Source of the DNA: Candidatus Campbellbacteria bacterium
GTDB lineage: Bacteria; Patescibacteriota; Minisyncoccia; Phycocordibacterales; GCA-2747955
NCBI GenBank assembly: GCA_002747955.1
Contig: PDQZ01000003.1
Location: 1-39,273 of the forward strand
Length of the DNA stretch: 39,273 bases
Reading direction: 5' to 3'
Below the pieces are notes generated by a model. That model did no database searches. It was not told the DNA's origin and worked only from the letters and a program-made list of their open reading frames with translations. Positions 10,293-37,332 of this stretch are shown piece after piece. How positions within the stretch are numbered: the stretch's first letter is position 1; each line of letters starts with the position of its first letter. Position numbers and translations under genes: made by a program.

Positions 10293-10333
10293 GCACGATT
10301 TTGGCTGCGTGGTTGTGTTTGTCAAAATCGTGC
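10293..10333 (-). repeat. 15-nt-loop hairpin family copy (reverse orientation)
   Basis: Reverse complement GCACGATTTTGAC-AAACACAACCACGCA-GCCAAAATCGTGC. Confidence 0.85.
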
Positions 10334-12380: not shown

Positions 12381-12394
12381 AAAATTAATAAAAG

Positions 12395-12444
12395 AAGCCC
12401 GAAAATTTGGTCCACACAACCACACAAGCCAAATTTTCGGGCTT
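12395..12444 (+). repeat. 15-nt-loop hairpin family copy
   Basis: AAGCCCGAAAATTTGG-t-CCACACAACCACACA-ag-CCAAATTTTCGGGCTT. Confidence 0.85.
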
Positions 12445-12479
12445 TTTAACTTGATTTTTAATATAAAATATATATAAAT

Positions 12480-14090: not shown

Positions 14091-14131
14091 GCCCGATTTT
14101 GACCCACACACCCACCCAGTCAAAATCGGGC
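14091..14131 (+). repeat. 15-nt-loop hairpin family copy
   Basis: GCCCGATTTTGAC-CCACACACCCACCCA-GTCAAAATCGGGC; 40/41 identical to 37292-37332. Confidence 0.9.
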
Positions 14132-18246: not shown

Positions 18247-18347
18247 GAAAATAAAAGCCCGAAATTTTTTGCCCTTGTTTTCACTTGTGACAGGCAAGGC
18301 CTGTCACAAGTGAAAACAAGGGCAAAAAATTTCGGGCTTTTATTTTC
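18247..18347. repeat. 101-bp perfect palindrome (49-bp arms, AAG loop)
   Basis: Arms 18247-18295 and 18299-18347 are exact reverse complements. Confidence 0.92.
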
Positions 18348-27282: not shown

Positions 27283-27335
27283 AAAAACCCGAAAATTTGG
27301 CAAACACATCCACACAGCCAAATTTTCGGGTTTTT
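27283..27335 (+). repeat. 15-nt-loop hairpin family copy
   Basis: AAAAACCCGAAAATTTGGC-AAACACATCCACACA-GCCAAATTTTCGGGTTTTT. Confidence 0.9.
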
Positions 27336-29337: not shown

Positions 29338-29378
29338 GCCCGATTTTGACAAACACACCCACGCAGTCAAAATCGGGC
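29338..29378 (+). repeat. 15-nt-loop hairpin family copy
   Basis: GCCCGATTTTGAC-AAACACACCCACGCA-GTCAAAATCGGGC. Confidence 0.9.
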
Positions 29379-31125: not shown

Positions 31126-31213
31126 TTTTATTTACCTCTTTTTTGTATTTCATATTAAAAAACCGAACTAGATTATAAAATATTTAAAAATAAAGTCAAT
31201 CTTTTCGGGTTGG

Positions 31214-31310
31214 GGAAAACCGCCGAAATTTTTTGAAACCTTTTGGAAAATAATTTGGGCGCCGCCCAAATTATTTTCCAAAAGGTTTCAAAAAATTTCG
31301 GCCGTTTTCC
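31214..31310. repeat. 97-bp palindrome (47-bp arms, one mismatch, GCC loop)
   Basis: Arms 31214-31260 and 31264-31310. Confidence 0.92.
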
Positions 31311-31353
31311 ATCCACCTTTTGCTTTTCCTTTTTTATTGTGTAAAATATATTT

Positions 31354-31972: not shown

Positions 31973-33502
31973 ATGAGTATTTCAAAAATATATTCAACTC
32001 AGTTTGATATTTTAAATTCTTTTATCGTTGAAATAGAGTCTGACATTGCCAAAAAAGGTCTTTTAAAAACTTTCAAAATCGTTGGGCTTCCAGACAAAGC
32101 AACCGATGAAGCCAAAGAAAGAGTACCGTCTGCCATAGCAAATTCAGGTTTTGATTCACCCAGACAGTATAAAGTTACCGTTTCACTTTCACCAGCCTTT
32201 AAGAAAAAAGAAGGTTCTATTTTTGACCTGCCAATTGCTTTGGGGTTTTTACTGGCATCAGAACAAATTAATTTTAACTTTCAAAACAAAATTTTCATCG
32301 GCGAGTTAAGTTTAAACGGAGATGTAAAGAAAATCAAAGGTGTTTTGCCAATGGTAAACTGTGCCAAAAAACAAGGTTTCACTTCTGTTTATTTACCCGA
32401 AGAAAACAAACAAGAAGCAAGTTATATAGAAGGTATAAATATTTTTCCCATCAAAAATTTAAAACAACTTGCCCAACACTTAGAACAAGAAAACAAAGAA
32501 CAAAAAGATTTAACTAAAATAATCAAGCCATTTGTTCGAAAAAAAGAACCTCAAAACCAAAATCATCAACAAATTCAAAAAAATGATTTTTGTTATATCA
32601 TCAATCAGGACACAGCCAAAAGAGCTTTAGAAATTGGAGCTGCGGGAGGGCACAACACAGCAATGTACGGTCCTGCCGGGACAGGAAAAACAATGCTTGC
32701 AAAATCTTTCTGCACAATTTTGCCCAAACTTTCACAAAAACAAGCTTTAGAAGTCACAGAGATTTTTTCAGCAAGTGGAATTTTAGAAACAGATTTTATC
32801 ACACAGCCACCTTTTAGAAGTCCGCACCACACATCATCTTATGTTTCCATTATCGGTGGAGGAACAAATATCAAACCAGGCGAAGTAACTCTTGCCAACA
32901 ACGGAGTTTTGTTTCTAGACGAGTTTGTAGAATTTGACAAAAGAGTTTTGGAGTCTTTAAGAGAGCCACTTGAAGATGGATATATAAACATTTCACGGGC
33001 AAAGGGAAGCGTTAAATTTCCAGCCAACTTTATTTTACTTGCAGCTTTAAACCCACCTTCAGCAGTTTCTCAAAATTACTCTTTAAATGACTTGAAAAAA
33101 TTTCAGAAAAAACTTTCAGGACCAATTATCGACAGAATTGACTTGTGGACCGAAGTTCAAAAAGTAAAACACAAAGATTTATCAAACAAGAAAGTTTCAG
33201 GAGAAAAGTCCTTTCAAATCAGACAACGAGTTCAAAAAGCTCGAGAAATTCAAAAAGAAAGATTTGGAAAAGAGAAACTCAACAGCCAAATGTCTGTTAA
33301 AGAAATTAACAAATTTGTCATTTTTTCACAAACCCAAAAAGAACTTTTGGAAAAAGCAGCCGAGCAGATGAATTTTTCTCCCAGGGTTTTTCACAAAATC
33401 AAAAAAATCACTCAAACAATAGCAGATTTAGACAACAACGGAAAAATCAAAGATGAACATATTTTAGAAGCGTTGCAATATCGCCCCAAAGACATAATAT
33501 AA
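31973..33502 (+). CDS. comM: ComM/YifB Mg-chelatase-like AAA+ helicase
   Basis: IVGLPDKA, DLPIALG, GELSLNG, GPAGTGKT, PFRSPHH, PGEVTLANNGVLFLDEF, SGPIIDRID. Confidence 0.92.
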   Translation: MSISKIYSTQFDILNSFIVEIESDIAKKGLLKTFKIVGLPDKATDEAKERVPSAIANSGFDSPRQYKVTVSLSPAFKKKEGSIFDLPIALGFLLASEQINFNFQNKIFIGELSLNGDVKKIKGVLPMVNCAKKQGFTSVYLPEENKQEASYIEGINIFPIKNLKQLAQHLEQENKEQKDLTKIIKPFVRKKEPQNQNHQQIQKNDFCYIINQDTAKRALEIGAAGGHNTAMYGPAGTGKTMLAKSFCTILPKLSQKQALEVTEIFSASGILETDFITQPPFRSPHHTSSYVSIIGGGTNIKPGEVTLANNGVLFLDEFVEFDKRVLESLREPLEDGYINISRAKGSVKFPANFILLAALNPPSAVSQNYSLNDLKKFQKKLSGPIIDRIDLWTEVQKVKHKDLSNKKVSGEKSFQIRQRVQKAREIQKERFGKEKLNSQMSVKEINKFVIFSQTQKELLEKAAEQMNFSPRVFHKIKKITQTIADLDNNGKIKDEHILEALQYRPKDII

Positions 33503-33625
33503 AAAAGTCATAAATTGACGAAAATCTTTGTTGACTTTATAAAATTATTTTTCAACGTAATAACACATACGTCTCAAAATAATTTTATTCGTCGCCTCGA
33601 TTTTCATTCAATTTCTGACTTTTTT
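33501..33625 (-). repeat. Bulged long-hairpin element, copy 1
   Basis: Reverse complement AAAAAAGTCA...GAGGCGACGA-ATAAAATTATTT-TGAG-ACGTA-TGTGTTAT-TACGT-TGA-AAAATAATTTTAT-AAAGTCAACAAA...TGACTTTTTT. Confidence 0.85.
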
Positions 33626-33650
33626 AAAAAACTTGGAAAATTAAAAAAAT

Positions 33651-33671
33651 CCCGCCGCCTTCGGCGGCGGG
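33651..33671. repeat. GC-rich TTC/GAA triloop hairpin
   Basis: CCCGCCGCC-TTC-GGCGGCGGG. Confidence 0.85.
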
Positions 33672-33730
33672 CTTTTAAAAACACTTCACCTTTCAATATT
33701 TTTCAATAATAAAAATAAAATAAATTAAAT

Positions 33731-33816
33731 GAAAATCGCGGAAAAAGAGAAAAAATCTTTGAGACGTATGTAATAAGTACGTTGAAAGGATTTTTTCTTT
33801 TTTGACAAAGATTTTT
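33731..33816 (+). repeat. Bulged long-hairpin element, copy 2 (degenerate)
   Basis: GAAAATC...AAAAAATCTTT-GAG-ACGTA-TGTAATAAG-TACGT-TGA-AAGGATTTTTT...GACAAA-GATTTT. Confidence 0.75.
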
Positions 33817-33834
33817 ACTAACCCACCTTACTTT

Positions 33835-33962
33835 CTAAAACTTAAAAAATTGGATGAATTGCGAGGCGTCGAATAAAAAAATCGCGAAACGTATGTGTTA
33901 TTACGTTGAGCGATTTTTTTTATGAAGGCAACGAAGCAAGTCGCCAATTTTTTAAGTTTTAG
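33835..33962 (+). repeat. Bulged long-hairpin element, copy 3
   Basis: CTAAAACTTAAAAAATTGG...GAGGCGTCGA-ATAAAAAAATCGC-GAA-ACGTA-TGTGTTAT-TACGT-TGA-GCGATTTTTTTTAT-GAAGGCAACGAA...CCAATTTTTTAAGTTTTAG. Confidence 0.85.
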
Positions 33963-33963
33963 T

Positions 33964-35067
33964 TTAGATTAAGAATTCTATAACATCGCCGTCTCGAACT
34001 ATATACTCTTTCCCCTCTGTCCTCAACAACCCTTTCTCCCTGGCAACCTTTTTTGACCCACAAGCCAACAAATCTTTATAATCAATCACCTCGGCTCTAA
34101 TAAACTTATCTTTAAAGTCATTGTGAATAGCAGTTCCAGCTTCAGGCGCTGTTGATCCGTCTTTTACAGTCCAAGCTCGAGTTTCAGCTTTTCCAACTGT
34201 AAAATAAGAAATAAGCCCAAGTAAAGAATAACACTTTTTAATCAAAACATCGATTCCATCAAAGTCAGCTCCAAGCTCCTCTTTGTACAAAGTTTTTTCA
34301 TCGGGTGAAAAAGAGTTTAACTCTCCTTCGGTTTTACCGTCAATTACAATATATTTAAAATCATTTTCTGCAAAATAGTTCATCAAGTCATCCCAAAGCC
34401 CATCATCTTTCGAATCAACATTTTCTCCAGAAAAATCTTTGTTCAAAGCATACAAAATTGGTTTGTTTGTTAAAAGTTGCAAACCTTTTAAAGCTTTCTT
34501 CTGGTCATCTGAAAACTCATCTTCAAACTGAATAATAAACTTCTCATCGTTCAAAATTTCCTGACATCTTTTCAAAACCTTATCCAAAACTTTTGCATCA
34601 GCATCATTTCTTTTCAAATCTTTTTCATTTGATTGCATTCTTTTTTCAACCACTTGCTTGTCAGCCTCAATCAACTCCAAGTTAATAATTTCAATATCAG
34701 TTTTCGGATCAGTTCGTCCTTCAACGTGAATAATCTCAGGATCTTCAAAAATTCTTGATACATGCAAAATCGAATCAACATCTCGAATATTTGCCAAAAA
34801 CTGATTTCCCAAACCTTCTCCTTTCGAAGCCCCTTTTACAAGACCCGCAATGTCTACAAACTCAACAATAGCCGGAACAGTTTTTTCGGTTTCAGCCATC
34901 TCAGCAAGTTGGTGCAGTCTTTCATCTGGCACCTCAACCACTCCCACAGAAGGGTCAATAGTACAAAAAGGGTAATTTTGAGCATCAACTGACTTTTTTG
35001 TTAATGCATTAAACAAAGTTGACTTTCCAACATTTGGAAGTCCTACAATTCCTACTTTTAAACTCAT
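33964..35067 (-). CDS. ychF: Ribosome-binding ATPase YchF
   Basis: [63 protein letters not shown]. Confidence 0.97.
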
Positions 35068-37291: not shown

Positions 37292-37332
37292 GCCCGATTA
37301 TGACCCACACACCCACCCAGTCAAAATCGGGC
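37292..37332 (+). repeat. 15-nt-loop hairpin family copy
   Basis: GCCCGATTATGAC-CCACACACCCACCCA-GTCAAAATCGGGC. Confidence 0.9.

Follow-up and report, generated by a model that had tools for sequence, protein, structure and literature searches.

Contig PDQZ01000003.1 of Candidatus Campbellbacteria bacterium (assembly GCA_002747955.1) was analysed over positions 1 to 39,273 of its forward strand, hereafter the window. Near its right end the convergent genes comM and ychF are separated by a 461-nucleotide (nt) spacer that holds three related hairpins, the subject of this study (Table 1). A first-pass annotation, made from the letters alone, had placed three copies of a bulged hairpin here and had named the two genes. 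Pfam upholds both names, homologues of YchF coming from Patescibacteria/Parcubacteria, and a word search, the hairpin arms and the folds all agree on the three copies. In the 39-kb window the word ACGTATGT-N(4-8)-TACGTTGA has three occurrences (expected 0.00), all between comM and ychF, and the family's covariance model (CM), R1, finds no member in the window beyond these copies. Copies 1 and 3 share an outer stem, P1, in addition to the bulged architecture already described, but copy 2 lacks this stem and matches only model positions 19-115. Copy 2 retains P2, the inner stems, the GA/GA loop and the apical ACGTATGT..TACGT (33764-33785), and is read as a truncated or decayed copy. Finer details of the initial description were recovered as well. 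All three copies show GA-R...Y-GA on either side of the apical stem and copies 1 and 3 the loop GAGGCGWCGAA / CAACRAAG, while the stems, all of whose claimed arms were returned by a repeat finder, differ between copies yet stay complementary. Compared with each other, copies 1 and 3 show inverted homology (75% over 89 nt).

When the strand bearing GAGGCG is folded as RNA, copies 1, 2 and 3 give −46.6, −34.0 and −52.6 kcal/mol, respectively (z of −9.6, −7.4 and −8.2), and none of 200 shuffles folds as well. The complementary strands are 8-16 kcal/mol weaker as RNA (−18.2 kcal/mol for copy 2); folded as DNA, both strands are about equally stable. The spacer runs from one stop codon to the other, with elements on both sides of a shared terminator. 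The comM stop codon (TAA, 33500-33502) falls within the P1 base of copy 1, and copy 3 stops 2 nt short of the ychF stop codon (TAA, 33964-33966, minus strand), so that the 3′ end of copy 1 abuts the comM stop, that of copy 3 abuts the ychF stop, and the structured strand of each full copy is antisense to the gene it adjoins. The GC-rich hairpin between copies 1 and 2 had been taken as the centre of an inversion like that of BIMEs, a view that we do not retain. A terminator scan finds nine pairs there, all G-C, with a T run after them on the ychF strand, and Rfam returns only generic terminator-type noise; by these features it is simply an ordinary intrinsic terminator outside the repeat family, which likely terminates ychF and, more weakly, comM.

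Table 1. Coordinates of the comM–ychF locus, its hairpin copies and further hairpins (window positions unless a locus is named; loci outside the window carry the prefix L).
Feature	Position	Strand	Details
comM	31973..33502	+	Mg-chelatase/ComM-type AAA+ protein; Pfam Mg_chelatase (7e-72), ChlI, Mg_chelatase_C
Copy 1, full-length	33500..33626	− (motif strand minus)	CM R1 110.3 bits, E 5e-24, model 1-132
Copy 1, outer stem P1	33500-33518 with 33608-33626		arms 95% complementary
Copy 1, GAGGCG	33593-33598		minus-strand reading
Copy 1, apical word	33552-33572
GC-rich hairpin between copies 1 and 2	33646..33676	−	CCCGCCGCC-GAA-GGCGGCGGG then ATTTTTTT
Copy 2, core only	33725..33821	+	CM R1 58.9 bits, E 1e-11
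Copy 3, full-length	33836..33961	+	CM R1 125.8 bits, E 1e-27
Copy 3, outer stem P1	33835-33853 with 33944-33962		arms 19 nt, 100% complementary
Copy 3, GAGGCG	33863-33868
Copy 3, ACGTA	33889-33893		pairs with TACGT at 33902-33906
Copy 3, CAACGAAG	33929-33936
ychF	33964..35067	−	ribosome-binding ATPase; Pfam YchF-GTPase_C (2e-33), MMR_HSR1
Three-way-junction copies	L013:2692-2872, L068:1928-2108, L075:2572-2752
Three-way-junction copies	L093:2095-2282, L042:7335-7522, L017:625-805	−
Second repeat family	14092-14130, 29339-29377, 37293-37331, 27288-27330, 12389-12449	+
Second repeat family	10294-10332		loop on −
Second repeat family	L091:8284-8331

The first-pass annotation had found the layout familiar from other environmental genomes, and this impression proved right. 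Scans for the apical word in species-representative genomes and metagenome contigs yielded 97 loci, about half of them chance or coding matches (for example, in a conserved Mucilaginibacter gene); in the remainder the word is set in the same architecture. Carriers are Saccharibacteria, Paceibacteria, Uhrbacteria, Peribacteria and unclassified bacteria, together with metagenome-assembled genomes (MAGs) labelled Clostridia/Eubacteriales and Gamma-, Beta- and Deltaproteobacteria. Within the fetched loci R1 makes 64 matches, which reduce to 55 distinct loci after identical ones are merged. Several loci carry two to four copies, in tandem or clustered in L082, L060, L074, L089 and the window itself. 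No described family had been recognized initially, and an Rfam match, which that annotation had named as counting against its proposal, was looked for and not found: Rfam 15 gives no gathering-level hit in the window and only terminator-type noise at E ≤ 10, only transfer RNA (tRNA) and signal recognition particle (SRP) RNA elsewhere in 16 related loci, and nothing relevant at E ≤ 10 for L004 or for L013, a version with a three-way junction. BLAST of copy 3 against plasmid and phage collections produced no match, a pattern scan of IMG/VR produced one probable chance match only, and keyword and supplement searches of the literature found no description of the motif. Judged by these searches, the family is widespread and uncatalogued.

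We derived a consensus structure of 52 pairs from the individual folds of 22 members aligned with MAFFT. Both partners change in 44 of these pairs, and the covariation score of 0.53 compares with 0.12-0.17 when partners are slid by one to three columns; none of 500 shuffles reaches it. With 57 distinct sequences, double changes are seen in 49 of the 52 pairs and the score rises to 0.61, against a control of ∼0.15; here too the covariation exceeds that of all 500 shuffles. The element is ∼125-135 nt long and has five helices. Read 5′ to 3′, the consensus begins with P1 (∼20 bp, lineage-specific), passes a bulged A and a U.G pair into P2, and opens into a loop RAGG(C/A) opposite (C/G)AAC(R)A(A)G that has a lone G-C pair inside. 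Variable stems P3 and P4 follow, with extra GA-rich loops common in GC-rich genomes, and lead through a tandem GA/GA loop to the apical R-ACGUAUG...(A)UACGU-Y stem. Conservation within the element is highest at the apex, with 18 invariant columns, and the apical stem covaries too (CCGUA/UACGG, GGCCUAU/AUAGGAC). The loops are purine-rich and invariant and all intervening stems covary. Selection, on this covariation, acts on the fold and beyond chance, which bears out the earlier argument that the copies do not reflect simple duplication. Stem mismatches outside three conserved positions comprise 99 G.U and 68 A.C; being nearly balanced, they fit random decay of DNA copies better than long-term selection on RNA only.

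The outer part of the element varies with lineage. In the AT-rich Patescibacteria lineage of the window a long, A/T-rich outer stem, an inverted repeat with TA...TA at its bounds (TAAAAC...GTTTTA), encloses the core, and a second AT-rich family has the termini TAGAAC...GTTCTA. P1 there amounts to terminal inverted repeats of 17-20 bp on a 126-nt unit. An A run opens P1 in the window's lineage and a T run closes it, the T run being confined to this lineage and missing from GC-richer members. Three other readings were rejected. A K-turn was set aside by inspection, the GA/GA loop being a symmetric 2×2 loop without the 3-nt bulge. The likeness of GAGCCGUAUG (L082:8715) to domain 5 of group II introns was judged coincidental, there being no bulge and the helix length being wrong. 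A small open reading frame (ORF) was considered, as an AUG at the P1/P2 junction opens frames of 14-34 codons in several copies, but many members have no AUG there, L004 has a shifted frame and the stems covary.

Copies recur at unrelated sites. Over 126 nt copy 3 shares 96% identity with L072:889-1013, located after atpD on the metagenome contig PDWI01002255; the similarity ends exactly at TAAAAC...GTTTTA, and the flanks have none. The same assembly holds five further contigs with family members in other contexts, in which outer and inner stem types are combined mosaically, and in another sample numerous, nearly identical copies of the TAGAAC...GTTCTA family occupy different sites. Relatives whose YchF is 74% identical (L099-L102) have no element after ychF, and one with 87% identical YchF (L103) has none in the 64 nt after the stop codon, which are only A-rich. 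Truncation is also seen: L060:2679, like copy 2, lacks P1, and only the 3′ half is kept in L057, L076 and L077:2286. A retro-type mechanism was considered, but searches with half-element hidden Markov models gave only three clear 5′-truncated copies, too few to argue it. As a separate observation, a further small hairpin, sharing AAATCTTCCGACATGATTT between the two loci, takes the place of part of the element at L074:9350-9491 and L077:2277-2424(−), which suggests that a second small element inserts into, or recombines with, the repeat.

The genes beside the copies are unrelated housekeeping genes, among them atpD-atpC, carA-carB, gyrB, murG and those for IleRS, LeuRS and EF-G; others encode a penicillin-binding protein, an AcrB-type pump, Obg and sugar transferases, or are tRNA clusters. 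Only in L089 does a XerC/D-like gene adjoin a copy. When 404 flanking ORFs from 54 loci were clustered all against all, no protein family recurred near copies. Placement is nevertheless polar. At 29 of 51 loci a gene end lies no more than 10 nt from the motif's 3′ end (median gap 0), compared with 5 of 49 for its 5′ end (median gap 83 nt). Twenty-two of the 29 abutting 3′ ends adjoin the stop codon of a convergent gene, and the motif is therefore antisense to that gene. Among 45 spacers, 21 are co-directional with the motif antisense, 11 co-directional with the motif in sense, 10 convergent and 3 divergent, against background proportions of 70% for co-directional, 15% for convergent and 15% for divergent spacers. 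No −35/−10 pair is conserved at a fixed distance in 55 upstream flanks, and a promoter match inside copy 1 (TTGAAT-18-TAAAAT) was dismissed as not conserved. A role as riboswitch or 5′ leader found no coherent gene set: the genes that follow are of diverse kinds, and copies mostly run antisense to their neighbours. Overlap with the downstream ribosome-binding site is confined to the Saccharibacteria version described below.

The reading that we favour, tentatively, is that of a non-autonomous repeat resembling a MITE (a miniature transposable element with inverted repeats) and built on a deeply conserved recognition hairpin. A non-autonomous mobile element had been among the first suggestions for these hairpins, and it is preferred here because near-identical copies are dispersed with unrelated flanks, relatives have none at ychF and some copies are truncated. 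Anatomy, covariation, distribution, polarity and presence or absence among relatives are observations; mobility, the strand that acts and any partner are inferences. Since the core is conserved while the termini vary, the core would be the recognition structure, folded from one strand, for a putative trans-acting protein that copies or moves the element. Local selection would then filter the insertions: surviving copies are mostly antisense to the gene that they abut, so the structured strand stays outside that gene's mRNA. In the lineage of the window the element behaves as such a dispersed insertion and occupies untranslated space by gene ends, in the present case between each stop codon and the shared terminator. 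At comM and ychF the copies are probably passengers; read-through from either gene would add very stable hairpins to the 3′ untranslated regions.

Known MITEs offer the nearest comparison. The ERIC/IRU, Correia (NEMIS) and RUP elements are imperfect intergenic palindromes of ∼105-155 bp that form one long hairpin, often lie directly after stop codons or inside operons, have TA at both ends, and occur in clusters and as truncated copies; they are transcribed within neighbouring mRNAs, with orientation-dependent effects. Like them, the present element is a non-coding unit of the 100-300 bp class with terminal inverted repeats (P1), dispersed and multi-copy, with unrelated flanks and absent at ychF in relatives. 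To our knowledge, each of those families is confined to one genus or family and owes its sequence conservation to recency. Here, in contrast, loops are conserved across phyla, stems covary and termini differ by lineage, and no cognate transposase of the IS630 type was seen near copies.

Several observations weigh against a MITE-like repeat. The logic of a MITE is reversed, the interior being conserved across phyla while the termini vary. The TA at both ends in the two AT-rich families is inseparable from the palindrome itself and may be a mere part of it, and GC-richer lineages do not have it. Near the copies no transposase, integrase or reverse transcriptase is found repeatedly, and a scan of 27 window ORFs found none of these, nor a RAYT/Y1 protein or integron integrase. 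Among the relatives compared, no strict pair of filled and empty sites with a target duplication was obtained. Copy 1 is oriented opposite to copies 2 and 3 within one spacer, which contradicts a simple replication-strand rule for orientation, an idea that we discarded. Finally, there are signs of RNA. As RNA, the strand that carries the loops exceeds its complement in stability in 54 of 57 sequences, by 11 kcal/mol on average, and the Saccharibacteria versions look like single genes. These are three-way junctions of ∼190 nt that add a further hairpin and a closing stem of 14 bp, with an internal loop GG / CAGG; compensatory change affects 40 of 60 pairs, and the pair table holds 29 G.U against 7 A.C (our own count). 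The closing stem's 3′ arm overlies the ribosome-binding site or start of the gene that follows in L013, L042, L068 and L075, the genes downstream of such junctions being a sugar transferase twice and Obg once. In the Saccharimonadia MAG L023 two sense copies stand in tRNA clusters (21-329 and 1785-2134), in the orders tRNA-Cys, motif, tRNA-Leu and tRNA-Phe, motif, tRNA-Gly; the motif ends 2-4 nt before the next tRNA, and RNase P cleavage would thus define its 3′ end. These copies, like the three-way junctions, look like transcribed RNA. In L036 an element lies beside SRP RNA and a tRNA.

Such features are what would be expected of a structured non-coding RNA, either a gene family or a cis-acting module, whose motif strand is transcribed and binds a conserved protein or ligand, and whose arrays in Patescibacteria are paralogues or degenerate duplicates. 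The three-way junction strengthens this explanation. It also accounts for purine-rich loops, tandem GA and conserved U.G / G.U positions that all fall on one strand, and the 5′-side median gap could hold a promoter. It is a strong rival that we nonetheless consider less likely than the MITE-like repeat. The 21 co-directional antisense copies fill their spacer and leave 9-42 nt to the next gene start, which is no room for a promoter of their own; no promoter is conserved at a fixed distance and no gene association is consistent; copies are truncated, presence or absence differs among close relatives, and, with the conserved positions set aside, G.U is only modestly in excess in the stems. Orphan structured motifs have been found by comparative genomics, such as the LOOT motif, a long hairpin of candidate phyla, and the DUF1874 motif, a suspected unusual attC site (PMC5737381). 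They resemble the present family in having covarying structure in uncultivated phyla, in occupying consecutive intergenic regions and in that RNA and single-stranded DNA (ssDNA) cannot be told apart by sequence. In contrast to them, our element is multi-copy and position-polymorphic, and Rfam 15, in which those motifs should be included, has no model that matches a tested copy even at E ≤ 10. A combination of the two ideas is possible, if doubtful: the core and the three-way junction would be one new, widespread functional structured RNA that in some Patescibacteria has become self-propagating and multi-copy, that is, a mobile structured-RNA gene. An RNA that scaffolds proteins or is even catalytic could then be envisaged, and the abutment of 3′ ends to gene boundaries would reflect processing or insertion.

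Two further explanations were considered. A host-serving barrier hairpin of the REP kind, acting as terminator or insulator against read-through or antisense transcription or as a stabilizer of mRNA 3′ ends, is suggested by window copies that lie in sense to read-through from the opposite convergent gene and flush with the stop of the gene they would shield, by the A run and T run of P1 that resemble a bidirectional terminator, by the great stability of the hairpins and by the depletion of divergent spacers (3 of 45 against 15%). However, many copies are inside operons (atpD-atpC, carA-carB), where termination would be harmful, GC-richer members are without the T run, and ordinary terminators are present in the window, including the one in the comM/ychF spacer itself. 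Termination also leaves the invariant internal loops unexplained, and the convergent enrichment is weak (10 of 45 against 15%); we regard this explanation as improbable. Less probable still is membership of a known family of ssDNA recombination sites, whether REP/BIME with a RAYT of the HUH class, IS200/IS605-type ends or integron attC sites, analogies that the first-pass annotation had drawn and that are largely refuted for REP/RAYT and attC on those defining features that could be examined. The element does share with REP, BIME and REPIN sequences the form of an extragenic palindrome at gene 3′ ends, in direct and inverted clusters; those sequences are proposed to be recognized as ssDNA hairpins, with possible roles at transcript ends, and both strands of our element fold well as DNA. 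With attC bottom strands it shares a folded strand that is antisense to the preceding ORF and starts at its stop codon, as well as extrahelical bases and internal loops that are conserved while stems vary, and the AT-rich families have AAC...GTT near their termini. REPs, however, are simple hairpins of 20-40 nt with a GTAG/CGTC tag, species-specific and with a RAYT that is typically REP-flanked, whereas the present element is three to four times longer, with five helices and several conserved internal loops, and has neither tag nor a RAYT nearby. The attC boxes R and L (RYYYAAC/GTTRRRY) are missing, the termini being TAAAAC or TAGAAC and not conserved across lineages; the apex, variable in attC, is the most conserved part; the outer stem has ∼20 bp; and the neighbours are core genes and not cassettes, without arrays. 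Neither a Y1 transposase nor an integron integrase is among the scanned window ORFs, and no attC-type model of Rfam matches. PATE elements, derived from IS200/IS605, have two different subterminal hairpins, one at each end, and insert 3′ of a fixed tetra- or pentanucleotide, in contrast to one continuous hairpin with no conserved flanking word. TIGR-Tas arrays, common in these phyla, consist of tandem 36-nt units with dual spacers and a Tas gene with a Nop domain (PMC12045711); we rejected them on architecture, the unit here being ∼130 nt with conserved loops, and no Nop-domain gene is among the scanned window ORFs.

The genomes of the candidate phyla radiation are tiny and compact, and almost nothing is known of their non-coding elements. 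The family would represent either a new class of structured RNA with a conserved partner or a new kind of mobile element recognized through an elaborate fold and not through its termini; either outcome adds a tool-like recognition module and a marker of genome dynamics for uncultivated symbionts, and the polarity at gene ends provides a concrete experimental handle.

Other hairpin repeats are present in the window. A second repeat family consists of terminator-like hairpins CCCGATTTTGAC...GTCAAAATCGGG with a conserved, C/A-rich loop of 15 nt (CCACACACCCACCCA or a near variant; Table 1). Five of its six window hairpins lie 9-20 nt after a plus-strand stop codon and the one at 37293 lies 67 nt after; the conserved loop is unexpected for a plain terminator. 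Positions 18247-18347 and 31211-31312 form very long, near-perfect intergenic palindromes with stems of about 49 and 45 bp (RNA folds of −84 and −75 kcal/mol), one of them just upstream of ruvA. They have A/T-rich arm words in common with the terminator family, and their covariance-model score is equal on both strands. An intergenic hairpin at 2893-2959, after pheT, with the stem AAAAAAGCCCATTTTCGC..., is 84% identical to L057:4620-4693 on an unrelated PDWI01 contig, and several hairpin families therefore seem common to these genomes.

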